Virus record (IMG/VR): IMGVR_UViG_3300031853_000002
Coordinates: 99,308-163,307 of that record
Length of the DNA stretch: 64,000 bases
From: a virus
Lineage: Duplodnaviria; Caudoviricetes
Direction: 5' to 3' (one strand)
Under the pieces are notes generated by a model that was given only the letters and a program-made list of their open reading frames with translations, was not told the origin of the DNA and did no database searches. This document shows, piece by piece, positions 1-24,521 of this stretch. Position 1 is the stretch's first letter, and each line of letters starts with the position of its first letter. Both the position numbers and the translations under genes were made by a program.

Positions 1-1
1 A

Positions 2-3000
2 AAGAATGAAGATATATATACAGTAGATTCAATTCTTCCTGGCGAGGATGAAGAGTCAGAATCCTATGTATATAGAAACAAGCTAATGGAAGGTGAAACT
101 CAAGCAGAATTTGCTCAAAGACTTAGAGCTAGACAAATGACTGCTGCTGAGCATAATGCCCGTCTTAAAATACAAAAGCTACAAGCTGTTCTTGATGAAG
201 CTAAGGTTGATTCATATGACCCAGTTACTGGAATGAGTAAACCTTCTACATTTATTGATCCAAGTACTCGTCGTTATCTAATGGCATATCTTGGAGAAAC
301 ACAGCAACATATAAAGAACAGACTTATAGCAAGAACCATAGGTACAGCTGTTAATAAGGAACTCCTTAATAATGCTGAGAACTATGACGAACTTATTAAT
401 AAGGTTAGAGATTCTTTAAAGATTAAGTTTGAAAGAAGTATTGGAGAAGACTTCCTAAATTATCTTGGAACACAAGATTATAGTGGTCTTTCTGCTTTTT
501 ATGGACAGTTATCTTCTAAACCTAAGTTTACTCTTGAAGAAGTTCTTAAGAATCTTAACAGAGATGGTTGGGAAGATTATACTATTCCAGAACAGTTAGC
601 TGCTATGTTTGAAGATGCAACTGGAATGGAAGGAGACTTTGACTTTATATAGGATGCAGCTAAATATGATGAACTATATAGTCAGTATATGGGAGAGGCT
701 GATCCAGATAAATAGGCTGAGTTAAAGGAACAACTTGATAAACTTGGACAAAAAGAATATCAAGCCTGGGATGAAGATTACTTCAATGAACAAGTAAAAC
801 AACTTGTAGAAAATGAAATAACTCGTCTAGAGCCTCAACTTCAGAAACTTAATAAAGAATTCCTAACAGATAGTGATTTAAAAGCTGCTAAAGATCTAGA
901 AGAAAGACTTTCAGTAGAAGAAAACCCTGCAGTTGAACTTGTAAAAGAGCTTGCTCCTAAGATTGGAGGAAGTGCTGTAGAAGTAGAGAAAGCTCTTGAA
1001 TCTATAATGCAGCAATTCAGAGAGAAAGAAAAGTCTACAGACTTTATCTTATCTGGAGACCAAGTAAACTATTTAGAAGAAGCTAAGAAACTTATAGCTA
1101 TTACTACTGCTATGGTAGCTGCTTCATCTCGTGAATCTAATTTACAAGATGGAATGACTTATAACAAAGCAGTTAATAAGTTCCATGCAGATCATCAAGG
1201 AAGACAACAAGGTTCAGAGTTCTTCAAGAATTTTGAGCCCCTCTTTGAAATGGACGAAAAGATTGGTGGACAACTTATTACAGCTCTAAATGGTTATGCC
1301 AACGAAATAGACCAGTGGATTTAGCTATCAAGAGAGAATCAAGCTAACAGTACTGCTAGTTTAAAGCGTTCAGCTGAAGCACTTAACAATGCTAGACTAC
1401 GCTTCTTGAGTGGTAGTATGTCTTCTAATGAGTTCTTAGAGGATAGTCTTGTTAATCCAAATGATGAGAACTCCCTATATAATTTTGAAAAGCAATTCCA
1501 CGATAACGTTAAAAGCGCTATAGCTGGAGGAAGAAACTTAAAAGATATATTTAAGAGTTTACTTTCACATCTTAACTAGGATGATGAAATTATAAGTGGT
1601 ATTACTTCTAATGTAGACGAAGAATTAAAAGAACTTACTGCTTATGATAAGTATATGTATCTTACTTCTTTAATTGCTTTAGATCCTACAGACCAATTAA
1701 GAAGAGAACAAGCCTTTATAAAAGCTAATCCTAATATTGCTCCACTTGCTACCCAACAACCAGGTATGCAACTTGGTCAAGCCCTCGCAGAAAACCCAGA
1801 CGTGATTAATGCAGCACTTGAAGCACTTCAGGAATTAGCAACTGCTAAAGGACTTAAAGTTCCTGTAATGTGGAATACCACTATAGTAACAGGACTTGGA
1901 GGTGGTGGTAAGACTAGTGTAGAAGCCAAGTATCTAGTTAATGAAGACGAAGAGACTTGGATAGCTGGTCCTACTGATAGACAACTTGAAGCTCTTAAAG
2001 AAATTGCTCCAAAGGCTAAAGCATTTAACCTTGATAATCTTATTAAGGCTATATATAAAGGAGAACTTAAAGGTACTGCAGGTAAGAGTATTGATGGATG
2101 GACTCCTAAAATTATTGATGATTCTAAAGCTGAATATATAATTAAGGATGCTCCAAAGCACTTAATAATTGATGAGGCTACACACGTTGATACACTTAAA
2201 TTACAAGCCATTGCTAATTGGGCTAAGAAAGCAGGAGTTAGAATAACTTTACTTGGTGATGAGAATCAAAGAGGTGCTGAATATAATTTAAATAGAGAAG
2301 CACTGCTTGCTTATAGAACTCCTAGACTTAATTTTTCACTAAGAAATGAAAGTATCTGGAAAGTATAGAATCAAAATCAACTTGTTTCTATGTTGGACAG
2401 AATGAGAAATTCTTCTAAAGAAACAAAATCTGCTGTACTTTCATAGATATTAGAAAGTTTTAAAAATAAGTTACCTCTTAGTTACTTTGAAAATGAAAAT
2501 ACTATAGAAGGAGAAAAAGTAATATCTAAAATAACTGCTGACGACCTTAATAGACTTAGTGGAAGTGTTGCTTATATAGGTGATAATAAAGATATTATAA
2601 ACTTTATACAATCTAATTTACCTGCAGGAACTACATTTACATCTTTAGATAAAAAATCTGTACAAGGCTCAGAATTTGATTATGTAATAGTAGACTCTGA
2701 TTGGGGAGGAGCCTTTACAAAAAGTGCTGATGGAAAGTTTAACTATGAGCAAGATATAGAGCATGCTGCTAACTTTTTGAGAGATTTATATACAATGATT
2801 TCAAGAAGTAGAAGAGGTAGTTTAGTTTTAGATAATCAATTAACTAACGTAGTAAATCCTATAAAAGAAGAATATACTACTAAATATGAAAGACTTTCTG
2901 AAGGAGTTATTCAAGATTTTATTGAATCTAGACTTGCTTACATAGAAAATATTCTTAATAATCTTGAGAAGCCAGAAGAAGTAACAATAGAAGAACCTAA

Positions 3001-6000
3001 AGAGGAACCAAAGGAAGAAGAAACTTCTGAGGAAACTCTAGAGCCAAAGCCTGTTAAAAATCTTTCCGATGCTGAAAAAGAAGAGTTACAAACTGTTCCA
3101 AAAACTGAAAAGGAAGCTAAAATAACAGGATATCGTGCTTATGGTAATGTTGCTTTTGTTGGAAATGTATCTGAAGATGGAAAGGAATGGATATCTACTG
3201 GTGGCAAGCCAAGGGATATAGGTATATTTGGTGCTATGAGTCCGGCAGGAACTATACTTGCCAAGACTGGAGCAGAGAAAAGAGAACTTGTAAGAAAACT
3301 TAATTTTATTAAGAGTTTATTCTTATATGATCTTGATATAGACCTTTATGATATTCCTCTTGAACTTCAAAGACAACTTTCTAAGAAGGCACTAAAAGCA
3401 GCTAAATTCTATTTAGTAGCTGAAGATAAGAGTAGTGTTCATAATCTTACAGGTCTTACAACTCTTAAGCAGAATGAACTTGATTTTATTCCTGGTAAGG
3501 TAATCAGTATTCAAGCTAGAGTAGAAACTCCTGCTGGAGAAGCTATTATAACTCTTGGAGCTGTTGCTAATCCTGCTAAATGGATAGAGGGAATAGAAAA
3601 TAACCCAAGTCTTTCTCGTGCCGAAAAAGATGCTCAAATAGCAGAAGCTAAACATTATGAAGAATAGTTAAAAAATCTTATAAATAGTAAAGATTAGGAA
3701 ATTAGAATAAATAAGCCTAAATTTAATGGTCGTACAGAACTTGTTCAATTAAGGGTTGGAGATATTACTGGTTTAGAGAATGCTCCAAATGCAAGAGATA
3801 AGCGTAAAATTAGACTCGAAAATCTATATGACGATATCTCTGAATTTGATGCTAGAACTGGTAACTCTGTTGTAAGTCCTATACATGTTATAACTGCACC
3901 TATTCCTGGAATAAGTGATAAGTTAGTTGGACATTCTGTATTGTTTGTTTCTAATAATAATACTCTACAACCTGAACAATTAGGTAAACTCTTTATTCAA
4001 CAACAAGAAGACAGAGCTAAAGGAATAGAATCTAAAGCACAAGTTAGAATGATTGTTCTTGACAATGCGGGAGTTTCATTCCATTCTCTTTATAGAGGAG
4101 GTTTCAAGGATATTTATTCAACTAGTGTTCGTGATAAAGAATTTGCTTTCCCATTTAATCTACAAGCACAAAGTATTCGTATGCTTGCTGCTATGTGGAA
4201 CTTCAGAGCAGATCTTAACCGCTTTATAAATGCTATGAATAATTCTGGTTATACCAGAGAATAGCTAATGGATATGGCTAGGACCGATACTGAACTTTAT
4301 CAAGAACTTCAAAATCAAAAGGTTGAAGAATACAGAACTATGTATGGAGAAGATCCAGAAAGAGAACCTGTTATTTCTAATACCGAATATAAGCAGTGGC
4401 TTAATAGTTATTTTGATAGAGATAAAGCTGATAAGGTTCTTAAACTTATTGAGTTCAATGAAAATTCTGATCTTCCTAGATTTAGAGTTGGATGGAGTAA
4501 TAGAGCAGGAGCTTATATAAGAAGAATATATGGTCTGAAAGAGGATAATCCTTATTATAATAGACATTATAAAGGACATTCAGAAAGATTTGATCCTAAT
4601 AATACAAATGGTATCTATATCAATCCTGATCTTGCTGACCAATATGCTGGTATGCTTGATTACTTATTTGATAATGTAGTCGGAAGAATATTCGATACTA
4701 CATCTTTAAATAAGAATGAGAATATCAATTATAAGGAAACTGAAAAATGGCTTAATGAAGCTAAGGCTAAGAAGCTAACAATTAACGACGAAGGTGGTGT
4801 TATTCCAATTCCAAGTCAAGAAATGACCAAAGCATTCCCTCTAATTCTTACTAAGATTGCTTCTTATATGCATAGTAAGATGCATTTCGGACAAGAAGAA
4901 TTTGATAATAGAAGAAATAGAGAAGGTGATAATGCCCTGTACCATATTTATCTTAATTACGAAAGTAAGACAGACGAAATTGATTACACAGGTCTTGACT
5001 CGTTCTTAAAAGCAACAGTAGGTGGAACAGAGGTTTCTGGACTATTACAAGAATCTAATACAAGAAGAGATGTAATTGGACAGAGTGACTATACATATGA
5101 AGATGGAGATACAGTTTATCAAGACTGTCGTTTAGATAACTTCTTTAATCTTATGTTCCATGGAGTTGTATTTGAAAAGAACTACAACGAATTCGATGGA
5201 AGTCAACAGCATGATTCTATGGCAATCTTTGGAGATGGATTCTTCTCAGATCCAGTTATTATCAGTGGTAATGGAAGTGCTAGAGATATGATTGCTGCTT
5301 GTGCTACTAATAGAAAGTTATTCAGATTAGATGTAGTTCCAGGTAATCCTATTCTTGAATTTACTTTTGACCAATACAAGGAAGAAACAGAAGTAAAAGG
5401 AGAAGAGGCTGCTACAGAACTACCTATACTAGCAGAAGCTAGAAGTCTAGGTATTGATACTTCAAGATTCAATTTTGATGGCTTTACTGATGATGAAATA
5501 GCTTCATTTATAGAGAGAAAGTTTGATGAACGTGATAGTAAGGTATTTGCAAAGGGAGAAGGAGACCTTTCTAAATTAGTAATTAGGGTAGATACTAATA
5601 AAGTATATACTCTAAGTGATGTTTATCCAGAAGTTGGAAATATTGTAAGCTAGGAAGCTAGTGGAGATGGTACAGCATTCACAGTTACTAATGATAAGGG
5701 TCTTAAATTTGAGATTCGCTATAATGACCATGAAATCACAGTAAATCAGAAGACTGCTCCAGGAACAAGAACTGTCGATGATAAGGTAGTTACTTCGTTC
5801 CAAGGACAAGAAGTAAATAAAGCAATACAAGACTTTATTGAAAGTAAATCACAATATGACGATAGTGATGCGCTTAAGAGTTGGATGAGTAACAATGAAG
5901 GAATTGAGTACTCAGCAGATGATCTAAAAGCAATAAGAAAAGACCTTAGAAATACTCTTGAAGATGAAGGAGTTTTAGAGGATGCTGATATTACACTTTT

Positions 6001-6052
6001 AGAAAATATAATAGATACATTTATCAATCAAATAAATACAAGTGATTGTTAA
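2..6052 (+). CDS. Giant virion cargo/ejection protein (5'-truncated, >2000 aa) with embedded SF1 helicase domain; requires TAG readthrough
   Basis: ORF fragments 86, 1007, 1655, 2777, 3941 and 4268 share one frame and are broken only by TAG (650, 713, 1322, 1577, 2366, 2444, 3665, 3695, 4262, 5651). First TAA/TGA is at 6050-6052. Motifs GLGGGGKTS, LIIDEATH, LLGDENQ, VQGSEFDYVI, LYTMISRSRRG. Confidence 0.85.
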
Positions 6053-6053
6053 T

Positions 6054-9000
6054 ATGCAGTGTAAATTACCTAATTTTGGGAAATTAGACGAAATTGGAGT
6101 TCCAGCCGAAATCCTGGAACTCCAAAATTTCGACGACATGGTGAAAGCTATAATGGAGTTTCTTGAAAAGAATACTACTAACTTTAGCTTATCCGAAGAA
6201 GGGTCTTTATCTCCTGAAAAGTATAAGGATTCAGTTGACCTACTAATAGATAAATTCGAAAATTTACTTGACGCTGCTGATAAAAATAATCCGAATCTTG
6301 ATCTTAAAAAGGGAGGAAAGCACTCTGAAATGCTTAAAGCTAACCTTAAAAATGAGCTTTATCCCAGAGGAGGTATAACAAGAGAAGAAGAAGTTGACTT
6401 ATCAGCGGTAATAGATGGACAGTTGGCAAGTAGGGAAGAAATAGCAGCGCAACGTCTTAACAAGATGTTAGATACTTTCTTTGCTAATAATCTTCCAGCT
6501 AGAGAATACTTCAAAACACACTTTGGTAGAGAACTTGGACTTACTACCGTAGTTAGAATAGGACAAACTTTAAAGGATAGTTCTATTGTTGATAGTTAGA
6601 AAGCTCTTAATGAAAACATAGAGAAGTTCATGTCTAACCAATATCTTATTTTATATAGATATTTAAACTCTTTAGGACTTGCTAAAGGGTTACCAAACTC
6701 TATGTTTAGACAAAATAAACCTATTGGAACTTATGTAAATACATTAGATAGATTCTATAATCTTGTAATGCATAAGAGTAAGATAGGTACACTTGAAGAT
6801 GAAATCGAACAAGGATGGCAATCAAGTCTTAGTAATGAAACTAACAGTAATGATGGACTATTTAAAGCAGTTAATGCTTACTTGTCTATTGTTTACTTTG
6901 ATAAATTATCTAAAGAAGCCATCGGTGATTATATTAGCTCTGACAAGAATCAAGACTTCCCAATTGAAGTTGATTCTGAAGGAGTAACACATTATAAATA
7001 TCGTTTTGGTAAGGATACAGAAAATAGAGTACATGGATGGCAAATTGATGTTCGTGATGCTCTAAAAGAAATGGGTAATTTCTCTAAGTTCCTTATTTCT
7101 AGTATTCCTATTGATGATACATATCTTACTCCAGTTAATTATCTTGGAGCATTCACCAACTTATTTGGAAAGGTACAAGCATTACTTGGAGGTAGAGAAG
7201 AAGTAAGAGCTTTATATAATGATATAGTAACCTTTAACTAGGATCCAGTTAATAAGATGCGTAGTATTCTTTCTCGTATCAATAAATATGATTCAGTTAG
7301 AGATTTCTTATTAAAAGGAGTTGTAAATCCTTATGAAATGAAGGTATTTGATGCTGTTTATGAATATGTATTTAAGGGAAGTAACTCTCTATTTAATATT
7401 GAAGCGGCATATAATAGAGTACATGGTCTTACTAATAGATATCCTCTTGTTGAGAGTCTTGCAGCTTAGATAGGTTCTAGTACAGAAATGTCTTATCTAC
7501 AAACTGTATTTGACTATAACACTAATCAATATATAACTACTATTAAGAAGAAATTCCAAACTAATAAGTAGTTCTTTGATATGATTAGATCTATCAATAG
7601 TAATAACTAGGTAACAGAAGAAGTAGATGTTCCATACAAATTCCTTTCTAAGTCAGCTAATAGATACTCTATAGACTTTGGAGACTATACTTTAGAAGTA
7701 AGTGTAACTCCAGAACTTAACCCTTATGGTATTCTAACTAAATGGTCAGAAACTAAAGGTGTTACTCTAAGCGTAAAGAATAAGCAGAATGGAGCTGAAA
7801 CTTCTGTAGAATCTTTATTTGCTAATAAGGATTTAGGAACTAAAGCTAAGAGACAAGCTTTTATAGATAGTATGAATGAAGATATATTCATGAAACTTCT
7901 TGAGTTTGTTGATTTCTTTACTGGAACAGGATTTACATCTACACAAGATGGTCTTTTAGAGTTTGACTTATTTAAGAATAACTTTAAGAAATCTCCAATT
8001 GAAGCACTGCTTACAGCTGTAAGAGGTATGGTAGTTAGAGATATACATACTCAATTTAGAAAGGCTGTAGAGAATGGACAATACTCTTCTAGTGCTCTTG
8101 ATAAATTCATTTTAGATAGTAAGATATATAAAGATTCAATTCTTGGAATTGATCCAACTAACAAAGAATGGAGAACTATTTGGGAAGCAGGTGTACTTGG
8201 ACCTGACCTTATTACTGTAAGTAATTCCCAAGATTGGGTTGATGATTATGTTACTATTAAATAGATAATGTCTGGAGAAATATCTAAAGCTAATACTAAG
8301 AACTTAGCTGGTGATAGTGTTCCTAACTATGGACTTGCTTTCATGGGTTCAGACATTCATACTATAGTATCAGATGCACAGCATAAGAGAGAAGAAGGAA
8401 GATTAACATTAACTCCTCTTGATTTCAACTTAATTATGCAAAGTCCAAATTCTGTTAGAGGTACAGTTATTGATACTGATGTACGTCTAGCAGATGGTAC
8501 CACAAAGCAAATTAAGAATATGACAGAAGGAGAGCTATTTTATCATGCTATTGTTGATAAATTCTTAATTCCTCTTACTTCTAAAGACAAATATATCATA
8601 GTACAGCCAACTACATATTCTGATAAGACTAAGTTTGTAAACTATATGATAAGTACCGTATTTAATGGTAAAGACTTATCTAGAATGTCTAACTCAGAAC
8701 TTGAAAGTCTGTATATAAATAGTATAGGTAAGGGTTATCAAACTATTTTACAGAATGTTCTTGATGATTTTGCTCAAATATTTGACTTACAAGAACAATA
8801 CAAACAAGCCTATACAATAGACGAATTTGGAAATGTTACAAGTACTAATGATTTAGCATTAAGACAGTTAGTTACTACTGTAGACAGACGTCTTAATAAT
8901 ATAACAGAACAAGAATTAGTAGCATTAGCTAGATAGAAAGGAGTAAAATCTGAGATACTAGCTGATACTCACTTTAGATATAATAAACATAGAAAACGTG

Positions 9001-12000
9001 GAGGTAAACAATATCTTTCATTTAATGAATCTCTATATCATTATGCTACTAAGGTTTATACTAAGCAAGGTATAAAACAAAGACTTAATGATGAAAAGAG
9101 AAAGTTCCTTAACCAATTATTAAAGAACAAGATTAGTATCACTGGTATTAGTATGTTTAAAGGTCAGCCTGATCCAGAAAGCTTATTTACAATGGCTCTA
9201 AAAGATCTTGATGAAACTCCTAGTAATTGGATACAACGTGATGGAACTCTTACTCTTGCCAAAGTAAATGATGAAAATATTGTAGTACATAATGCTTTCC
9301 CAGAAGGAACTAATGTAGAACTTAACCCAATTTTGGATAAATATTTCATGTTAAATAGTCTTCTTGGAAACAATCTACGTATGGTTCTTACTGGTTCAGA
9401 GATTAACCATAAGAATAAACATTTAGCTGGAATTAACCCTGCTCTTGTTATTAGTAGGCTATACAACGAAAAGGACAAGGCTGCTAATCTGAATATGCAA
9501 GATGCTAATATTAAATAGGCTGTAGAAACAACTGCTTTACAGAAAGGTCTGAATGCAGAAGATTTCTGGAAGTCTATGAGTCTTATAGAGGCTTATGACC
9601 TTATTGATAACATTACTGATACTGCTACTAAGAACAAGGTTAAGAAAGCTATAGATAAGAAGATGTATGAAGTTGAATCTGCTGGTCAGGGAGCACAATT
9701 AAAACGTAATGTTATTATCCCTGCCACTATGAGATATTATACTCAGAATAGTTTAAGAGGTATTCCAAGAACAATGCGTCTTGCTATTATGAATGATATT
9801 CAAGCAGATGTATTCAACTTTACAGGAGACAATGGTACTATAGATTCCCATGATGGTGCTGCATATATCAATCCTATTACATCTATCTTAGAAAACTGGT
9901 CACTTCAAGAAAATGAAGTTGGTACAGTTAAAAAGCCTATTTGGCATTATTATGACAAGGAACATATGACTTCTTCTCTTGTTAAGTTTGCTGCACATAC
10001 AATTACTAATAATATGATGTAGCAATCTATAGGTTCAAGAGTTAACATGTTAAACATGTTTAAGAAGATGTCTAATACTCCTTGGGCACAAACAGGCAAT
10101 ATTCTTTTATATGCTGCACATAAACCTGATGGAGAAATAACTTTCCAAGACCTTACAGGTGGAAATGCATTATATTATAAAGGACCAGAGGGTGTACACT
10201 ACAAGATAGTAGACTTTGGCTATGAAGATGGAGTTTATTGGACCGATGAAATTAGAGTAAATGATAAAGGTATTGGTAGTAAGCCAGAGCGTAAATATCA
10301 TTATTTTGATGCTGACAGTAATCATATAATTGCTACCAAGAAATTAGAAGGTTACCATACTATGTCTTCTATTTATGAAGCACATCAAGTATTTGGTGGT
10401 ATAAACAGTGAATCGCTTATTGGAGAAGGTAGAGATGCTAAACTTCAATACTCTGAAGCTTCTAACTATGTAGTAGCTAATCTTGTAAATAATGTTACTG
10501 TTCTTACAGAACTTGGTAAAGAATCAAAAACAAGAGAACTTAACCAAAATTACTATGAACAACCTCTTAAAACCTTAATGATAGATTATCTATGTAATAA
10601 TAGTGCTATCAAGAATGGTGCAGGTAATAGAAACGATGCTTCAAGATTCTATAATAATGAAGCTCTTGATACTATAACTCTTGGAACAGAATACTATGGT
10701 ATTCAGATGGACGCTGACCATGAAGCTGATGAAGCTGAAATGACTGAGTTTTCTCAGGTTATATCTGCTTTGGATGCTGGTGGTAGACTTCATAACTATG
10801 TAAAAGGTATATATCAAGCCCTTGGTCAGATTGCTCTTGAAGAAGCTTCTCTTGAAATGGAAGCTATTACAGCTTATCAGTAGAATCCTTCTGAGGAAAC
10901 TCGTGATGCTTTATATGATATTATAGGTAGAACTATTATTAATAATATAAGTACTGCACGTGGTCAAGCTGGACTCGCTGAATCTATTATAGGACAAATC
11001 AAGAGAAAGTTTAATCTTACTAATAGTCATAATTTCGATGACTTAAAGATTCCATTTAGTGATGCTAACATTTATAGTAATATTCTTTCTACTTTCGCTT
11101 CTATAATTACTAATAAGTCAATTCGTAAGAAGTATCCTGGACTTGGAGCTGTTCTTTCTCCTGGATTCAATATTATGATGGTTTACGATATAGATGGTAG
11201 ACAATACTAGTATAAGGATTTAGTAAAAGAAGCTACTATTCATTATACACAATATAAGAAAAGAGTAGCAGAAGGTAAGGAAGATCCTGAGGATGCATAC
11301 TTCAAAACTATTTATGAGCAAGATAAAACTGCTCTAGAAAATGGTTATTATCTATCATCAGAACAATGGAACAAATAGGTTGTAGAAGCTTATTTAATGA
11401 AGAAGACTGATGATTATAATGCTCTTAAATGGAAGTATAAGGTAGTAGATATTCCAGGTCAAAATCCGGATTGGGATTTACATACTGAAGAGTTCATGCC
11501 TACAGATAATGTAGGAGTACTTGTTCAGATTGGTGAAGAACAACATTGGGAAGATATTTCTTTGGATTCTATTCCTGACTATTATCTATTTAAAGCAGAT
11601 CCAAGAGCCTTCATGCAGGACAAACTTGGATAGCCTGTTAAGATTCTACAATTTAGAAAGAACTTACATAAAGCTCGTAATTTAGCTCCAACTAAAATCT
11701 GGTGGGACTACAAAGGAAAAGCTAATATTCTAAATCCAGAAACGCAGGTACTTGAAAGCAAGACTTTAGATAGAACTACTAATATATTTAATAGTATTCA
11801 CTTACTTAGAAAGTTTGCTGAATCATAGAAGGGAGATAAACAAATAAGAATTAACAACTATATAGAAAGACTAAAAGCTCAAGGAGTTAAGGAATATTCT
11901 AGTACACAAGAATTACTTGATGAACTTGACCAAGGCTTCTATAATGGAGTACCTATTCATTTATATAATACTCCTGCTGAACTTATAATGTCTAATATCT

Positions 12001-15000
12001 ATCAATCCAGATTTGGAGTGGATATAGATGAATCCATGATAGATGTTATAAAGGACGGTCCTAAGAAAGCTAAGAATGTAAGGCAGGTACATCAAAGTGT
12101 TGATCCTAACTTCTATGATTTAATAATGACTAAAGCTAATGGTCATCATACCTATATATCTTTAGATAGGGCTTTTGAAACAACTAAGGCTGATGAAGAT
12201 GGAGAACTTCCTGATACTTCATATAGATGGACTTATTGGAAGGATAGACATAGAAAAGCTGTTAATGATCCATTAATAGTTAATGAAGTTTATGCAACTA
12301 ATAAGGAACAGAAAGTTTTATTTAAGATTGGTAGAGATATAAGAAGACCAGATCTTGCTTATAGTTAGGAAGGTAAATACTACTATGATAAGAATACACA
12401 TGAAAGAGTTACAAGGAATGAAAACAGGCTCCAGTATAAAAATGGAGAAGTTATTGAATATGTTGAATTTGTAACTAAACATGAAGTAAAAGATCACGGA
12501 CGTAGACATACAGTCTTAAATATAAATGTTGAAGAATTAAAGAGAACAATTAGTCCTAGAGATATTACTCTTGATAATGGACATACTCTTACTCCTCAAC
12601 AAGCTATTGATTAGGATGCTAATACTTATATACAAGAACTATGTAAAGAAATCTATGAAGCAGATTCATATGAAGCCTTTACAGTTAATAATCAACAAGT
12701 TAAACGTTCTAATTTAACAAGATTACAAAGGATATTAGAAGGATTTGCACATAAAGATAAGAATGGTAAGTATAAGTACTTTGGTTACGATGCTACTCTT
12801 ACTAATTACTTAGAGGCTATATCTGAGCAGTTCAGTAAGATTCCAGAGACTAAAGAATTTAAGAGACCTGACCTTACTTATGATGCAGATACTGATACTA
12901 TCAAATTTATAAAGGCTAAAGATAACGGTTCTATCGCTAAAATTATAGAAGATAGAACAAAAGCGTTAAAAGCAAGGCTCAATTAGAAGAAATATTATTC
13001 TTTCTTAAGATCTCAATATTATACAGCTTCTCGTATTCCTGCACAAACTTTACAATCATTCATGAACATGAGACAGATAGGTTATACAGCTGAGGGTTCT
13101 AACCTAGCTTATGTATCTCACTGGCAGACTTGGTAAATTTAACAAATTTTAAGTTGGACATTTTGACTCTTAGTCCAAATTATACTAAATTTAATAAAAA
13201 TAAAATTTTATAATTATGAGAAAAAGTCCAACTAAAATTACGCCAGAGCTTATAGAAAAGCTAAGAGAGCTTGTAGAAGCAGGAAAACAGAATAAAGAGA
13301 TTTCAGAGATTTTAGGCATAGGTACTACTACTATTACTACTTATAAGAAAAAATATAATATAACTTATAAAAAACTTACAGCCGAAGATAGAAAAGATGA
13401 GATTATACAATTATATACTTCAGGTATGTCTACTAAAGATATAGCTTTTAAACTGGGATATTCTTCTCAAACCACTATTAAAAATATACTTAATAAATAC
13501 GGTATAGAGGGGAATAAAGAAAAAGAAATTAAAAGAATTCAAGAAGAAGTATCTAAGGTATGTAATAATTGTAATTCTGTATATGAGGTAAGTAAAAAAG
13601 TAGGATGCAGTGTTAGTACCGTACGTAAGTATATGTCTGAATTTGGACTAAGTTTAAAATTAAAAGAATCTCTTACAGATGAGGATATAAATAATATAGA
13701 TATTCCAGAACTTAAGTACGATTTTAATACAGAAATAAAGAACATTCCAGAAAATGATAGGGCTGAATTTATTATTAATAAAATCAAACTATTAATTATA
13801 AAAAATCGCAAATATACAGGACTTTTATTAGTAAAAAATAATGGAATAAGTGAAAATTATTTGCGAACTTACAACATTAATATTGAAGAAATTAATAATA
13901 GTTTAGGAATAAAAAGAGTTAATGGTTCTTGTCTTGAATTATATTTCTCTGAATTCTGTGAATTAAATAATATAGACTATGAAGCCCAAAAAACTTATGA
14001 AGATTGTACTTATAAAGATTATTTAAGATTTGATTATTATCTTCCTAAATATAATGTATTAATCGAAATACAGGGAAAGCAACATTACATTCCAATAGAA
14101 AAATTTGGAGGAAAAACTGCTTTTGAAGAAGGAAAACTAAGAGATAATATTAAAAAAGAATGGTGTCATAATCACAACATAAAACTTATATATATTTCTT
14201 ATAAAGATTTATATCTAAAGGACTATCTAGAAAATCTATTTGAAAAAGAAATATATCCTTGTTGCCAAGTATAAACTGGGTGAATTGCTGGAAAGTCTAG
14301 AGGTAGATAATCAGCAGCCAAGCTAAGTTTAGGATAAAGGAACTTAGAAGGTTCAACGACTAGAGGAATGAGCCTAACAATAATTTCCTCCACGAGTGCC
14401 CAGCACAGAAATGTGAAGATATAGTCTGAACTTACGGTATAACCTAACCATAAACCGTAGAATTAGAGGATAAAGAGCCTCTAAGATAACAAAATGTACA
14501 AGGAAGCGATTATGATATTGATAAGGCTTATATAATGGGACTTGCTTTTGATGATAATGGACAATACATAGGATGGTCTAGCTTATTTAATTATAATAGC
14601 CTTGAAACAATTCAAGCTTCTGAATACTTACCACTTCCTAAAAATGGAGTAATAATCCAAGAATCAGAAAACGGAGTAGATGTATCAGATGATGTTGCTA
14701 TTATTAAATAGGCAAGAGATATCTTAAAGAATAGTCCAGAGGCTAAGCTAATAAATGAATGGGAAGCTAAGAAAGTACTTGCTTATGCTAGAATCCTTAA
14801 TAAGTTAGGAGATAATAACCTTGTTAAAGGTGCTGATCCAGAAACTATTGAGGAACTTAATAACCATAACGCTACTAAACTTCCTGCTGATTTAAAGGCT
14901 GCTGCACTTAGAAACTTTATTTCTGTACATATTCAGAATACTATACAGAATGTTAGAAATGCTGCTGACTCTTATGTTCCTGTAGATATGGAAGACTTAA

Positions 15001-17264
15001 GAAAAGCTGCTGATAACTCTCCTAAAGGTGCTGAATCTTTAGAGATATCTCTAGTAAATCCACTCTCTATATATACTATGCAATATCAGAACATGACTGG
15101 TAAAAACGTTATTGCTATATCTGCTACTGGTCAGAAAGGTGCTTTCATGTGGATGTATTATTTAAATGATACTATCAAGAATGCTCGAGAAGGTATTGAT
15201 TATATAGTAAATGAAGTTGGAGAAGTAGTTCCTGTAGAGAACACTGACTTTGCTTATAGTAGATTTGAATTTACCACAGACAGAATAGCAGGTAGAAGTA
15301 AGACAGTTAATAATATACCTCAAACTCATAAAGTTACTTCTACTACACTTCCAGATGTTAATGTAGAAGACCTACAAGACCTTAATCTTATAAAGTACAT
15401 TGAATCAGGAAAGTTACACTCTGGTATTCCTATTGACATTATGATTAGCCAGATGATTAGTGCTGCTACAGATAACGCTAAAGAGCTTATTCTTGCTAAG
15501 ATTAATGCTGGTAGTAAATTAGCTAAGTGTTACTTATTCTTAATGACTCTTGGTTATGATATTAATGATATAGTTAAATTCATGACTAGTGATGCTGTTT
15601 CTTGGATAGACTCTCTATCTGATCCTAACATATTCTTAGGACAAGAACTTAGACCTGATGAAGCTATTACTGAAATAGAGAAGTACTTAAAGAACTACGA
15701 CACTAATAAGGATATTGACCATTATGAAGATGAATTTGGTGGAGAAGTAGATAACTCTCGTGATAGATTATCTCTGTTAAAGAGTATAATTCCTTCAGAT
15801 TTGACTGCTTCACAAAGACAAGAAGCTTTAGCAGATTTAGCTGAATTCAAGAGAGTTATGGAAGGTTCCGATGAATTTAGTACTTTCGGACGATTCTTAA
15901 GCATTAACCAAGGTCTTCCTGGTAAGGCTGAAGATTTGGAAGGAGTACTTTCTAATATCAAGAAGATTATTACTAAGAGAGAAAAGGATATGGGTATTGT
16001 AAATTCAGATGGAGTACTTACTGAAGCTCCTGATGATAGATACATAGATATTGCAGGAGGAATGTTCGATCCAGTTAGATGGTTACAAGACGAAGAATAT
16101 CAAACTCGTGTAGCTGAATACTATAACAAACTAAAAGTTACCTTAAATATATTTGCAATTGCTCCTAAACTACCTCACTTTAAGAGTATGTTTAAACTGC
16201 TTGGAGGTGAATGTACTGTTAATCAGTTCTCAGTAAAGAGTAAGATTCTCAGTGCTTGTCTTAATAAGATAGCAAGAGAATGTCCTAAACTTTACTTAGA
16301 CGATAAGTATTATTCAAGAATTTTAGGATTTGCTTCATCTATAATGATGCAGCAATTTATTGTTGATAGTGGCTTTAAATTCCCAATAAAAGGCTCTATA
16401 TTAGACAGTAATAGAACAATCGCAAATAATCGTTCTGGAATATTATCATTAGATACTGAAGAGGGTATTGCTTCATTTAAATACTACTTCGAAAATGTGG
16501 TTATTCCTGGATTAAAGGCTGGAACTTATGGAGATTGGGATGATGAAACTAAAGAAACTATTCGTAGAAATCCATTCATTCAAGCCTTAATGAGAGGTAA
16601 TGATAGAGATGTTCCTGTTTGGAAAACAAACGTTAATATTTCTTCTGATTCTTCTTATACAAGAGTTCAATTATCAAGATTTAGTAAAGGACTTAATCAA
16701 CTATCTAACTATAAGATTGGTAATTTATCTGTATCTGATTGGTTTGCAGTTTATAACTTGATTGTAAATAAGAACCAATATGGATCTGACCGTCTTACTA
16801 AGATATTTGAAGGATTTATTAAAGAATTTGATAATAAGGGCGATAATATAATTAACAGATATTTAAAATATGTAGGAGAGCATGATTACTCTGAACAAGA
16901 GATAGATAAGATGATGGACTTTACTGCTATGGACTTATTTATTGCTCAAGCAAGAGTAGTATCTAGTCTGAAAGGACAAAAAGATCCTGTAGTTATTATG
17001 TATGAGGATAAAGTTCCTGTATATTATAAGAATATAGGCTTTAACAGATATGAGAAGATGGATGATATACTTCCAGCTCTTCCGGGTGAAAGTATAGAAC
17101 AAAGACTTCATCGATTCTATTTAGATAGAGCATACTTTATATTAGGAAAGCCTTATTCTAATATAATAACTAAAGTAAAGGACCAACTTAATCAAGCTCC
17201 TACATTTGCTATAGCTGAATTAATGAGATAGACTAAGTTGTTATTAGACATTAATTGTGCATGA
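6054..17264 (+). CDS. Virion-packaged single-chain DNA-dependent RNA polymerase of crAss-like phages; join(6054..13134,14497..17264), ~3282 aa, TAG-recoded and intron-split
   Basis: One frame with 19 in-frame TAGs and no other stop except at the intron. Motifs IRKKYPG and SRIPAQ. Splicing restores WLQGSDYDIDK (DxDxD catalytic motif); ISAATDNAKE lies downstream. Ends at TGA 17262-17264. Confidence 0.9.
13162..13193 (+). promoter_or_regulatory. Putative Bacteroidota-type promoter for the intron endonuclease
   Basis: TTTG-N20-TAAATTTA (1 mismatch to TTTG-N19-21-TAnnTTTG), ending 22 nt before ATG 13216. Confidence 0.4.
13216..14274 (+). CDS. Intron-encoded homing endonuclease: N-terminal HTH repeats plus C-terminal PD-(D/E)xK (Vsr/DUF559-like) nuclease
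   Basis: Three HTH-like segments (KEISEILGIGTTTI, KDIAFKLGYSSQTTI, YEVSKKVGCSVSTV) and LRFDYYLPKYNVLIEIQGKQHY...RDNIK. Lies inside the intron; no TAG codons. Confidence 0.8.
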   Translation: MRKSPTKITPELIEKLRELVEAGKQNKEISEILGIGTTTITTYKKKYNITYKKLTAEDRKDEIIQLYTSGMSTKDIAFKLGYSSQTTIKNILNKYGIEGNKEKEIKRIQEEVSKVCNNCNSVYEVSKKVGCSVSTVRKYMSEFGLSLKLKESLTDEDINNIDIPELKYDFNTEIKNIPENDRAEFIINKIKLLIIKNRKYTGLLLVKNNGISENYLRTYNINIEEINNSLGIKRVNGSCLELYFSEFCELNNIDYEAQKTYEDCTYKDYLRFDYYLPKYNVLIEIQGKQHYIPIEKFGGKTAFEEGKLRDNIKKEWCHNHNIKLIYISYKDLYLKDYLENLFEKEIYPCCQV

Positions 17265-19831
17265 AAAACTGTACTATAACTTTTAAAATTGGAGAAACTA
17301 CTCGAAATATAGTAGTTCCTGAAGAAGAATTCTATGGGGCAGAGGGCGAACGCTCTCTGTCTACATGGGATTTTTAGGCTAGGCTTGGACAAGTACTAGC
17401 AAAAAGAAAAGATGAATGGAACAGCATAAAAAGAGATATTATCCAATCTTTAAAGGATAATAGTGCAATTTCTGAAGCTGTAACTTTTAGCAAAATAAGT
17501 AAGCAGGAAGGACTTGTACCTAATGTTAATTATAAATATATACAAGATACTTATCCTGAGATAGATTTTCCTAATATTGATGTTCCAATCTTATTACTGG
17601 ATAACTTAGATATGCAATCTAAATTTCCTGTAAGCGGAAGAGTCATAGATAAGAAAGGAAAAGAAATATTTGTAGTAAGAGGTGATAAAGATTCTCTTGT
17701 ACAACTTGCTGGATATTTAAAGATTAGAGAAAAAGTTCTTAGTGGAGAATATAAAAATACTCTAGATGAAGAACTTACCAATATACTTGGAAGAGTAGCT
17801 ACTAAATGGAATGTATCTCCAGAAGAAGCTATACTCAAATTCTTAAATGATAAGAAAAGTGTAAAATCAAGTGAAAAGGGTATATTAGAAGGAGCTTCTA
17901 TATATACTTGGATGACTTATATAACTGCTGCTATAAAGGAGACTCCTATTAAAAAGAAATATAACAATGTAATACTAAACGAAGTTAATAGAAGACTTGT
18001 TACTAATAAGTTAGGAGAACAGGTTCTTTCCACAAGTGAACTTATTACTCCTTTAATGTAGACATTTCCACAAATATTTTCAACTGAAAAAGATCTAATA
18101 GAACTATTTAATAAAAAGTCTGGAGAAGTTCTTGATGTAATAGCACAACGTCTAAATGCTAAGAAAACTAATCTGGATAAGTCTAAAGGTCCAAAAGCTG
18201 AAATTGGAAAGGCTAGAATAGATAATGCTATGGACTTCTATGCATTACTTAATGAAGTAAGAGAAGAAGAACTTGCAAAGCGTAATGGAGAAGATATTTG
18301 GGGATTTACTATGTTATTTAAGGCTATTAATTCTTTAACTGATACTAATGAAAATCCACTTGATGTATTACCAGTATCTCTAAAGAATAAGAAACTTATC
18401 TTTAAGAAAGTCTTCCCATCTTTTGAATCAGCATATGGTTATGGATATGATACAGTGATTTCTTTTACTAAGGAAGAAGAAAGAAATGGTTACTATATTT
18501 ATAGCCAAACTAAAGAAGTTGGAAATAAAACTGTTACTTATTACTATGTAACTCCTTATTTTATCAATGAAAAACTAAATGCTAATAGATTCTCTAGTAT
18601 AGCTGATGCACAAGAATGGATTGATAGCCATTATATTACATAGAATTTAAGAGCCAATTCCTTGATTGACCTTAAATAGAGATATATAGATGGAGGAGTT
18701 CAAGAAAGAACTGGTAGAACTTTCCTGAGTGATAAATTTATACAGGAAGGAACTATATTTACAGCAATTGATATGCCTTTAGATATACGTTCTACTAATA
18801 TGAAGGAAGAAGAATATAATCTTCTTAGTAAGTCATTATAGGATTTCTACAATTACATAGAAACTCTTGATTTTGATACAGCAACTAAAGCAAATATTAT
18901 CAGTAAAATAAATACTGCAGAAAAGGCAGTAATCTTCCTAAGTGAAATGAACAGACTCATGAACACTAAGGATGATTCTGGACAAATGCAGTATCTAAGA
19001 GTAAATAATGATAAAGCTCTATCTATAGTAAATGAAATAAATAATAAGAAACCTACATATTATTATGTTAGTTCTTCCTATAAAGTGGATGAAGGTAAGT
19101 ATCGTATACGTTTTATAGAAACTGACGAATCTGCGGTAGGAGAAAAGAAATATAATAAACGAACTCCTATATTACAGTTGCTGGCAAAGATAGCAGACGT
19201 AATGAATAAGAAATTTGGAGTTGAAGTTAATATAGTAAATGAGGAACAACTTACTCAAATGGGAATTGAAGATATGAATCTAGTCAAGGCTTTTATTAAA
19301 GATGGTAAGATTTATATTAATTCTGCTACAGCTAAAGCAGAAGATGCTTTCCACGAATATGCTCACTTATTCCTTGGTGCTCTAAAGGCAGTTCCAGAGT
19401 TTAGAGATAGTTACCAAGAGTTCATTGAAAAGGTACTTTCTACAGAAAGGGGACAAATCTTATATAAAAGGAATCAAAAGAGATTCCCTAAACTCAGTGC
19501 TTTTGATCTTGCAGAAGAAACTGTTGCTGATTTATATGGAGAATATATGGAAGGTAACTTACCTTATGAACTTAGTTCTTTATTTGCTATGAATGACAAA
19601 CTTAAAGAAGTAGAAAATACTATATTTGATAGAAAAGATAAAGGACAAGCAATTATTGATTTTAAGGGTTCTCTAAATGGTATTTGGAAACACTTTAATT
19701 CAGATGTTGCTGTAGCCTTAAATGATAATATAAACTTTATAAAAGATGGGGCTCTCCAAATCCAACGTCAGAAAGATAACTGGATTAAAGAGCAAATTAA
19801 TAAAGGAAATATTATAGAAGACTGTGAATGA
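17261..19831 (+). CDS. Virion cargo protein (856 aa) with C-terminal zincin-like HExxH domain; TAG-recoded
   Basis: ATGA overlap with the RNAP stop; starts MKNCTITF. In-frame TAGs at 17375, 18059, 18641, 18677, 18839. Motif AFHEYAHLF...EETVAD. Confidence 0.82.
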
Positions 19832-22800
19832 AAAATTGTACATATGATATAGTAAATGGAGAGCAAGGGCTCTCTTTAATAGCACTACTTAGATATGTAG
19901 ATAAGTAGTTTGCAGAAGTTCTAGATACTAAGGAAAAAGCTTCTATAAGTGATATAGTATATTCTAAGGATCCACTTAAAGACTCTATTATTACTAAAAT
20001 AGGTTAGGTAAAGCATGATTATATTATAATTGCTTCTCGTACAGTTTCTACATACGATGATGAACTTGGTGGAGATGGAAATACTCTTTCTTATCAAGAG
20101 TTTATAGAGGATCCATCTTGTCTTATAGATGGACAGCCCCTCGTAAGACCTTTTAACAGGGACGAGTTTAGAAATAGTGAAATAGAAAATCTTGTACAAA
20201 ACCATAATTATTCCAAAGAAAAAGCTACTGCTGAAGTTGATAAAGACTTAGCTAATATGGATGCCTTTAAAAAGGATTCTGTAACTCTTCACAAAATAAT
20301 TGATGGTTATGGAGCTGTTTCAACACAAGTAAAGAACTCTGACTATGTAAGTGCTGTGGCTGATGTTGTAAAAGATACTCCATTTGAAGGAAGAACAGCA
20401 ATGCTTGAAGACCTTAAAGGTCAAATGGAAAACTTTGTAAATCAGTATATATACAGAACACAAGTTAGTCCAGTTGTAGTAGGTAACGTAGGTCTTAAAG
20501 CCAAGATAGAAGCCCTAGGTAAAGAGTTAGTTGGACATATTGACTATTTATCTGTTGATGCTTCTGGAACATTACATATTTATAATTTTAAAGCTTCTCA
20601 GAAACCAATGAATACTTGGTCTAAGGATAAGTGGAAAAAATATAACTATGGTATGGCTTTCCTTAAATAGATGCTTGCTTATAATGATATTCCTATCAAT
20701 AATATAGAATTAAATATAGTTCCAGTTAGAATGGATTATGAGGGAGATAACCTTAAAAAGATAGTTGTAGGTGCTCCCCAAAATATCTCAGTAAACAGAA
20801 GTGGTAGTTATATGCTTGAACAATATGATAAGCATGCTCGTCACTTTATTCGTAGTAATGTTAATATTCCTAAAGTTACTATTGAAACATTTGATAAAGC
20901 TGATGAAATCTTCCAACATATATTTCCTATTTTAAATATGAGAAGTGAAGGAACACATCGTTCAGCTGTAGAAATGATTAAAAGAGCACCTGAAGCTGGA
21001 GAAGCAGAACCACTTGTTATTAGAGAGGTTAATGATGAAAAAGGACGTTGGGAAGTAATTATTGGAGGTAAATCTTATAGACCTAAATCAAATAAGAACA
21101 AGAATAACAATCAAGAAATTCTTGATATAGTTGTAGAGCATCTTAATGAAATACAAGACGAAACTCTTCAGACGGTACATACTCTTAAGGAAGCTATTCG
21201 TAAAATGAATCAAATCGGAGAGAAGGGTGTATTTGTTCCCGAAGCAGATGTAATAGACAAATTAAAAGGTCTTTCATCTTCTAGAGGTTTCATTAAGACT
21301 ATGCTTGATACATACTTTAATGATGTTGATTGGGACGTAGATTCTAAAGGTAATAAAACTCCTATATATAAATGGAAGCTACGTGATGATCTTCTTGACT
21401 ACAATATTATTCTAATGTAGAATAATGATACAGGGCAACTTGATATTATTTCATTATCTGCATTTGACTGTAATGCTGAAATACCGTTTGGTAAAGGACG
21501 TCATAATTTACTTGGTGCTTTTAAAACTGATGTTGAAACAAATACTTTAAGAGGAGACTATGGTAATGCAGAAGTAATTAGAGCTATAGTTCTTCTTAAT
21601 TAGATACTTCCAACTATGAAGGATATTGATAATATTCAACTTGGTAAAGTAAAGGTGCTTAGCCATACAGGTAAGTCTCGTAGTTATGCTATTGGTACTA
21701 TTACAAAGGATTATCTACCTGAAATTATAAGCACCGTAAATCTAGAAGGATTTGTAAACAACTTTAGAGGTTTAAAAGCTGATAAGTTTGTTGATCCTAT
21801 CAGTGCAGTTCTTAACGAATATGGACTTCTAGCTACTGGTAGAAATGAAGCGGAAATGGCTAAGTATCTTCCAGAGAAGTTCATAGAACTACAAAGCCTT
21901 ATTGAAAGTGATGAATCTTATAAAAAGACTAAAGTTCTAAAAGAATTACTTGAATCTTTCCAATCTGAGGCTACTGGTATACTACCATCTCATGAATTCA
22001 AGGATATAGCTAGATATGCTGCAGGACAACTTGGTTCTAAAAGAGATCAACAAATCTGTAGAGTGTATAGAGCACTTTCTGATGCTTATCATCATTATAC
22101 AAGAGAAACATTTAATTATGAAATGGAACTTACTGATGTATATAGACATATGTCTACTACTAATCATATTCCAAATCAAAATATACGTATTGTAACTGAT
22201 AATCTAGCACAGACTTATAATAGTATAGCAACTGAAATTGAACAATATCATGCTAAGAATATGAGAAAGTTCATTAAGGAATATTTAGATGCTAAAGGTT
22301 ATGGACTTGCTAAAAATGCTACTATCGGTGATGAAGTAAATCTATTTAAAAATCTATTTGAGTAGGACGAACAAGGAAAGAGAACTATGAAGTTTAAGAA
22401 TCCTTGGACTGATGGTAGTCTTGATAATGCTGAGGCCGAATTCCTTAAAAAGGCTTTGTGGTAGTTCTATATAATAAGGAATGGTGGAGATGTTCTTAAC
22501 TTAGGTGGTTATAACGATCCTAAAGTTCTTGATTTTATATAGAATAGAGCAGGAGGACATAAATATTTATGGTGTCCGCTTATGAGAGCTACTAATTCTA
22601 CTAGAGTTATGCAAAATCTAGAGACTTCTACTTGGAAGGGAAGAGCTCAACGTATGTGGAAGATAATGTCCAATCCTAAATAGTACTATGATGATCAAAT
22701 AGAAAATATTACAGAACAAGAAAGAGAACTTATCAATAAAGGGTTAAATGCTGATAAGGAAAAACTTGGCCATGTAATTAATATGTTTAATATTGGAGAT

Positions 22801-24477: not shown

Positions 24478-24521
24478 AAAAAAAAGAGGGGAGCCCGATT
24501 ACCGGACTCCCCATTCTTTTT
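24476..24521. terminator. Bidirectional intrinsic terminator between the convergent late (+) and early/middle (-) arms
   Basis: A-tract, then GGGGAG-C-CCG-attac-CGG-A-CTCCCC hairpin, then TTCTTTTT. Confidence 0.85.

Follow-up and report, generated by a model that had tools for sequence, protein, structure and literature searches.

Among the phages of the human gut, Crassvirales are the most abundant. How about a megadalton of protein, including an RNA polymerase (RNAP), passes through the narrow tail of such a phage has been stated as an open question (PMC10172136). Examined here is a stretch of 64,000 nucleotides (the window; bases 99308-163307 of the 163-kb IMG/VR virus record IMGVR_UViG_3300031853_000002), in which consecutive large genes encode proteins with cysteines at the very ends that face one another. 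Under translation table 11, the plus strand of the window is broken into short fragments from position 1 to 24477, whereas reading TAG as Gln yields a few very long open reading frames (ORFs); reading TGA as Trp gave no improvement of the window ORFs. The best explanation is that the window derives from a divergent crAss-like phage in which TAG encodes Gln, and that it contains the RNAP-associated cargo block of this phage. The block comprises, in this order, P1 (helicase-like), an intron-split RNAP, P3 (zincin-like) and P4; all four products, the RNAP included, are probably carried in the particle and injected. As in the cargo blocks of other Crassvirales, the RNAP gene is flanked by giant genes where the late module ends, and a zincin HExxH motif is present in one of their products.

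Facing cysteines at the cargo junctions

All four proteins are encoded on the plus strand by ORFs in which TAG is Gln. P1, the first protein of the putative chain, occupies positions 1-6052 with its 3′ part and ends in ..TSDC, so that its last residue is a Cys (codon 6047-6049), while its N terminus (MKKNDFIV) is devoid of Cys. The RNAP starts with MQCK, placing Cys3 at 6060-6062, and ends in ..DINCA with a penultimate Cys (codon 17256-17258); its stop codon overlaps the start of P3 in the sequence ATGA. P3 (17261-19831, 856 amino acids) possesses exactly two Cys residues, Cys4 in MKNCT (17270-17272) and Cys855 in ..IEDCE (19823-19825). P4 (19828-24477, 1,549 amino acids), the last member, again starts with MKNCT (Cys4, 19837-19839) and terminates in ..KKAQD without Cys. 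An earlier note on this DNA had quoted these termini, and on re-reading them with TAG as Gln in the window and in the full genome we found every one correct, including the Cys-free C terminus of P4, to which the equally Cys-free N terminus of P1 can be added. That the proteins are otherwise poor in Cys, as the note had also remarked, holds quantitatively: the chain proteins contain 21 Cys among 8,633 residues (0.24%) compared with 1.31% in the remaining proteome (Fisher p about 4e-23).

Genome-wide, facing terminal Cys residues occur in no more than 4 of the 107 pairs of neighbouring co-directional genes, and three of these four are the chain junctions. At the internal Cys frequency, the chance of finding all three junction pairs is about 3e-12. 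The facing cysteines are thus a confirmed observation, far beyond chance.

Conservation of the terminal cysteines in crAss-like phages

We tabulated terminal Cys residues, as the earlier note had proposed, in 21 genomes comprising four relatives of the window phage, seven lineages reached via their RNAP and ten known crAss-like phages. In 21 of 21, the first protein bears Cys at its C terminus, middle proteins bear it at both termini and the last protein at its N terminus, and the two outer ends of the chain are free of Cys. A relative at 74% identity (L001) retains all terminal Cys residues while the neighbouring residues change. MT835470 and MT835492, with 25-30% identity, follow the rule as well; their codes differ, being standard in one and having TAG as Gln in the other. 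In MT835470, the only Cys residues of P3 are the two terminal ones, P4 has Cys3 alone and P1 has a single Cys, close to its C terminus. The seven further lineages, found through diverse RNAP representatives, likewise obey the rule and use TAG as Gln, TGA as Trp or the standard code.

In phi14:2, g067 ends in its sole Cys, the RNAP g066 contains no Cys other than Cys3 and Cys2179, and g065 contains Cys3 alone. In crAss001, gp47 has one Cys (residue 2339 of 2341), gp50 has Cys5 and Cys2404, and the sole Cys of gp49 is at position 5. The rule also holds for DAC15, IAS virus, cr116_1, crAss002, the prototype crAssphage, two Suoliviridae and the Leptolyngbya cyanophage Lbo-JY46.

The polymerases were additionally sampled as the best 150 matches from a library clustered at 50% identity. 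Among the 68 full-length sequences, 65 carry Cys at residues 2-6, 66 within the last ten residues and 64 at both ends; given an internal Cys frequency of 0.31%, about 1.5% would be expected at the N terminus and about 3% at the C terminus. The C-terminal Cys is last or penultimate in 62 of 66 sequences, and the N-terminal Cys lies at position 3-5 in 119 of 127. A set of 120 gp50 homologues adds little independent weight, as all are at least 80% identical in the core.

Several observations accompany this survey. A standard-code relative (L021 5982-17561) has a short chain of a 598-amino-acid protein whose sole Cys is the last residue, an RNAP with Cys only at 5 and 3146, and a 116-amino-acid protein whose sole Cys is at position 6. 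For crAss002 gp33 (L008 5270-5366), the true start probably lies 32 codons downstream of the annotated one, since an in-frame MSCT matches the conserved N terminus of the family. Among Intestiviridae cargo or transmembrane proteins, crAssphage gp47 (L023 12787-15360) and crAss002 gp30 (L010 2548-4221) contain one Cys each, placed 2-8 residues before the C terminus, and the protein that follows each of them has no facing N-terminal Cys.

Selection on the amino acid and pairing of the termini

The junctions between RNAP and P3 and between P3 and P4 in the window consist of near-identical DNA with overlapping ATGA, and the fused polyproteins of some crassviruses are thought to be cleaved (bioRxiv 10.1101/2020.03.07.982082). 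The Cys codons might be by-products of a nucleotide signal that couples or restarts translation at the junctions, or remnants of sites at which a polyprotein was cleaved. Both ideas are contradicted by the comparative data, and we regard them as extremely unlikely. Terminal and internal Cys use the two codons alike (TGT:TGC 81:13 at the termini versus 175:30 internally), and the spacing between a stop codon and the next start differs across genomes, from overlapping codons to gaps of over 130 bases. In crAss001, DAC15, IAS virus and cr116_1, the gene of the first protein lies on the opposite strand, in crAss001 with gp47 convergent to gp50, and nevertheless keeps its C-terminal Cys. The points at which cargo proteins are fused are free of Cys, and Lbo_81 has no internal Cys at all. 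Furthermore, alignments of the terminal 130-180 residues reveal Cys as the sole invariant column amid hypervariable termini, the second of these alignments having been pre-selected for Cys-bearing sequences. On the basis of equal codon use, variable spacing, the opposite-strand gp47 and the invariant Cys column, selection acts on the amino acid rather than on a DNA motif.

Gene splits and fusions indicate which termini belong together. In MT835492, P1 is split into two genes, and a new Cys pair is present exactly at the split, where unsplit P1 proteins are Cys-free. Conversely, fusions of the RNAP with the gp49-like protein (crAss002, crAssphage gp44 and Lbo_81) are Cys-free at the fusion point and keep the upstream pair, while in the Suoliviridae cr1_1 and cr118_1, where the gp47-like protein is fused to the RNAP, the downstream pair alone is kept. 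The gain of pairs at a split and their loss at fusions mark the facing termini as partners. Each partner terminus contributes one conserved Cys, and the two are gained and lost jointly, as a tether demands.

The same events bear on two other explanations. The terminal Cys residues could be independent marks: a capsid-targeting signal, the alternative offered in the earlier note, a packaging signal, or anchors to another virion protein, for example the portal or the inner capsid. The cargo does need some route into the procapsid, and some upstream cargo proteins have a solitary C-terminal Cys that faces no partner. Independent marks, however, would leave unexplained why the first N terminus and the last C terminus are Cys-free in every tabulated genome, and why a fusion removes both facing Cys residues and a split adds both; we consider this explanation unlikely.

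Alternatively, middle proteins might close on themselves from N to C terminus, and the end proteins with their single Cys might homodimerize or pair together. The pairing of individual thiols cannot be read from sequence alone, and a low-confidence model of P3 places short strands at both termini. This arrangement is nonetheless very unlikely in view of the fusions: the Suoliviridae fusion drops the N-terminal Cys of the RNAP and retains its C-terminal Cys together with the N-terminal Cys of the next protein, and the Intestiviridae and Lbo-JY46 fusions show the converse loss. A self-closing RNAP would be left with an orphan thiol by either fusion, and N-to-C cyclization was discarded as a candidate. 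Protein trans-splicing by a split intein was rejected too: it would need the junction Cys to be set apart from the polypeptide end by an intein half that is tens of residues long, whereas 0-3 residues follow the C-terminal Cys in 66 RNAPs and at most eight in all tabulated genomes, and the N-terminal Cys lies at position 3-6. The C-terminal regions of gp49-like proteins proved too divergent in alignment for pattern scanning.

The earlier note had proposed an ordered chain of cargo proteins packaged in gene order. The chain itself is strongly supported by the facing Cys residues, the Cys-free outer ends, the 21 genomes with their three genetic codes, and the splits and fusions. Gene order is not, because in the four phages named above the gene of the first protein runs on the other strand; the order is therefore that of the orthologues.

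A proposed cysteine tether for cargo ejection

We propose, as the more probable reading by a modest measure, that the cargo proteins are joined by a disulfide, or perhaps by a metal bridge, into a near-linear pseudo-polyprotein that is packaged jointly and ejected serially. One Cys within a few residues of each terminus would face the next protein, and two facing Cys residues would become linked, most probably through a disulfide that forms once the particle has left the reducing cytoplasm. In this way the individual polypeptides would be joined into a quasi-linear thread of about 1 MDa that is functionally equivalent to the fused polyprotein of other crassviruses. As the Cys residues sit at the extreme ends, the joint would be almost as thin as a single chain, which is what could make serial passage through a narrow channel possible. 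Packaged at a fixed 1:1 stoichiometry, the thread would be drawn serially and partly unfolded through the portal and tail channel, and reduction in the host cytoplasm would free the proteins. From the conserved pairing we infer the pulling through the tail and the release by reduction, both already envisaged in the earlier note, as well as the bond, its chemistry and the time of its formation. A stronger version, in which the giant cargo is one disulfide-stitched thread of about 0.7-1 MDa that is ejected as a single molecule, with cytoplasmic reduction both releasing and activating the RNAP and its partners, is conceivable, although we lean slightly against it.

Published data on crAss001 make a tether plausible. 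Its virion contains gp47, gp49 and gp50 as well as disulfides (PMC10172136), and the cargo must partly unfold to pass constrictions of less than 50 Å, with an exit order thought to depend on packing and mutual interactions (PMC10172136).

Several points weigh against the proposal. The link between the proteins is deduced from evidence that is comparative throughout. Virion assembly in the reducing cytoplasm and an anoxic gut make the formation of a disulfide hard to place. No thioredoxin-fold protein was found in the window genome, and a search of this genome for an Erv-type thiol oxidase was silent, as were its controls. The termini around the Cys residues are hypervariable, and a specific docking surface that would align the thiols is not evident. 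Complex prediction with unaltered window segments, the C-terminal 132 residues of P1 and the N-terminal 181 residues of the RNAP, gave a score of 0.03, which speaks neither way on binding. BLAST found no significant link between P1 and gp47 or gp67, nor between P4 and gp49 or gp65. A few RNAPs in the databases, P0208 among them, lack one or both terminal Cys residues; most of these look like wrong starts or intron-truncated gene calls. Finally, the near-C-terminal Cys of the upstream cargo proteins crAssphage gp47 and crAss002 gp30 is without a partner.

The difficulty of placing thiol oxidation is avoided by the main alternative to a disulfide, in which the facing Cys residues share a metal ion (Zn, Cu or Fe, for example) or are linked by other thiol chemistry. 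Such a bridge could form before packaging in the reducing cytoplasm, accounts for the same pairing pattern and calls for no oxidation in either the cytoplasm or the anoxic gut; the Asn or Asp that precedes the C-terminal Cys in 34 of 66 RNAPs is a possible extra ligand. We still judge a metal bridge rather unlikely, in that each terminus offers a single Cys with no conserved His or second Cys nearby, two-thiolate sites are weak, and disulfides are documented in crassvirus particles (PMC10172136). The disulfide remains the preferred form of the tether. As a separate observation, the prototype crAssphage encodes, by annotation, a thioredoxin and a truncated thioredoxin (L023 38177-39444), whereas the window genome gave no thioredoxin-fold hit; these proteins may bear on the handling of a disulfide tether.

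The junction Cys pair offers a concrete and cheaply testable mechanism for fixed stoichiometry, ordered exit and release in the cell. A Cys tether would also account for the occurrence of one set of modules as fusions in some families and as separate proteins in others. If the stronger version of the proposal holds, redox-controlled pseudo-polyproteins would represent a new mode of viral protein delivery. In practical terms, the terminal-Cys rule helps to find true gene starts, as for crAss002 gp33, and to recognize intron-split or recoded polymerase genes in metagenomes.

The RNA polymerase gene and its group I intron

The earlier note had treated the RNAP as one continuous ORF. Its gene is instead divided into exon 1 (6054-13134, plus strand) and exon 2 (14497-17264, plus strand) by a group I intron (13135-14496, plus strand) that was recognized by Rfam RF00028 with 74.2 bits at a gathering cut-off of 50 and has its ribozyme core at 14215-14448. 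An ORF within the intron (13216-14274) encodes a homing endonuclease with helix-turn-helix and HNH-type features, matched by HNH/homing-endonuclease PHROGs; it contains nine Cys residues and no TAG codon. Both splice sites were set by alignment to the intronless gene of L001. Exon 1 ends one base into the Leu codon before QGSDYDID, and splicing restores ..WLQGSDYDID.. in a product of 3,282 amino acids. The catalytic motif DYDID, an instance of the double-psi beta-barrel motif D[FY]DxD, is encoded in exon 2 directly after the splice junction.

The D[FY]DxD motif was present in 15 of the 18 window-clade RNAP representatives checked. BLAST and tblastn alone gave no link between the window RNAP and gp66 or gp50, whereas hhalign matched the core of the window-clade RNAPs to the gp66/gp50 core (probability 97.2%, E 4.2e-11), with 69 columns aligned on either side of and including the motif. 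By motif and profile, the window enzyme would be a crAss-type two-barrel virion RNAP of the phi14:2 gp66 and crAss001 gp50 type. Virion packaging and activity on early genes are established for phi14:2 and crAss001 only (PMC10172136; bioRxiv 10.1101/2020.03.07.982082).

The intron site beside DYDID is very common. Most of 69 RNAP representatives of 1,800-2,700 amino acids (proteins P0122-P0262) end in ..HWQTW or ..WLQGSDY, and are therefore exon-1 products that were called as whole genes. In cr116_1 (L013 4043-14908), gp51 ends in Cys and is followed by a Cys-rich ORF of 215 amino acids and then by gp49, which has no N-terminal Cys; the arrangement suggests a further case of an intron-split RNAP and not a true junction. 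The crAss-type RNAP homologue P0249 (2,892 amino acids, standard code, L024 8001-16679) stands on a contig that is otherwise bacterial-looking (TamB, PRK, SLT and HD), which may indicate a prophage or another setting for the enzyme.

The remaining cargo proteins and the end of the block

The full P1 gene encodes 2,959 amino acids in the whole genome and begins upstream of the window. P1 contains a superfamily 1 (SF1) helicase-like domain (AAA_30, E 1.5e-8), and the P1-like proteins of L020 and L022 have SF1 helicase domains as well (AAA_30 and AAA_19). PDDEXK_1 was found in the P4-like proteins of two relatives, whereas Pfam detected none in the P4 of the window. With AAA_30 and AAA_19 in P1-like and PDDEXK_1 in P4-like proteins, the ejected chain may include a helicase-nuclease pair.

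P3 carries a zincin motif HExxH..E, with H698, E699, H702 and E753 invariant in the P3 alignment. A zincin domain next to crAss polymerases has been described (Drobysheva et al., bioRxiv 10.1101/2020.03.07.982082), and the motif of P3 fits this description. A Foldseek search with P3 against the PDB gave nothing significant, but weak matches to HExxH+E zincins pointed to metalloproteases of the lethal-factor and PPEP-1 type. The AlphaFold2 model of P3 is of low confidence (predicted local distance difference test 61, predicted template modelling score 0.32). P3 did match Lbo_81 in its zincin region (E about 1e-4); apart from this match, position in the block is the sole argument for equating P1 and P4 with gp47/gp67 and gp49/gp65. 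To judge from its motif, a P3 protease could process or release members of the chain.

PHROGs and Pfam provided no family for P1 (AAA_30 apart), RNAP, P3 or P4. A related-locus search gave no match with P3 as the query, and only L001 with RNAP exon 2. Downstream of P4, a GC-rich hairpin between an A-run and a T-run, with no strand assigned (24488-24512), looks like a bidirectional terminator that closes the cargo operon. It is strong and placed at the switch from the recoded plus-strand genes to genes on the minus strand.

Comparison with known systems

A full-text literature search combining Crassvirales with 'terminal cysteine' found nothing. The paper on phi14:2 gp66 mentions neither cysteines nor disulfides (bioRxiv 10.1101/2020.03.07.982082), and in the crAss001 paper the word 'cysteine' is absent and the passages on disulfides concern the tail and the portal vertex (PMC10172136). 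Cysteine and disulfide are likewise unmentioned in the paper on phage N4 (PMC13434306). As we did not find a publication describing an end-to-end tether of terminal Cys residues, these results suggest that it is undescribed.

The closest counterpart is the gp67-gp66-gp65 block of phi14:2, whose gp66 is the crystallized virion RNAP (Drobysheva et al., bioRxiv 10.1101/2020.03.07.982082). As in the window, giant virion proteins flank a two-barrel D[FY]DxD RNAP, a zincin motif is located in a downstream neighbour and the same Cys rule applies. The phi14:2 block differs in comprising three proteins instead of four. The window RNAP, moreover, is about 1,100 amino acids longer than gp66, split by a group I intron and encoded with TAG as Gln, and BLAST detects no similarity between the two outside the catalytic core.

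In crAss001, gp47, gp50 and gp49 follow the identical rule for first, middle and last protein. All three were found in the virion by mass spectrometry and assigned to a cargo zone of the capsid (Bayfield et al. 2023, PMC10172136). The maps did not resolve the cargo proteins, and a link between them is not reported there; the published masses of the three sum to about 694 kDa (PMC10172136). Unlike the window phage, crAss001 encodes gp47 on the opposite strand, has three such proteins and shows no recoding.

The polyproteins of Intestiviridae and Suoliviridae (crAssphage gp44, crAss002 gp33, cr1_1 gp76 and cr118_1 gp14) contain the same modules in the same order. Here a peptide bond does the job proposed for the Cys pair, and the fusion point is Cys-free. 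Later cleavage of the fused RNAP polyproteins has been assumed (bioRxiv 10.1101/2020.03.07.982082).

Schitoviridae, represented by phage N4, also package a giant RNAP in the capsid, gp50, together with the ejection proteins gp51 and gp52. N4 gp50 is believed to be threaded through a channel of 30-45 Å in an unfolded or bead-like state (PMC13434306). It shares no homology with the cargo described here and, unlike the window enzyme, is a single-subunit T7-like RNAP made as one chain.

The principle of the proposed tether, again with no homology, is that of AB-type toxins. In these toxins, an interchain disulfide holds the chains together during translocation through a channel, and cytosolic reduction frees them. 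Their bond follows the proteolytic nicking of one chain and does not lie at the extreme termini, whereas the tether proposed for crAss-like phages would join separate gene products head to tail.

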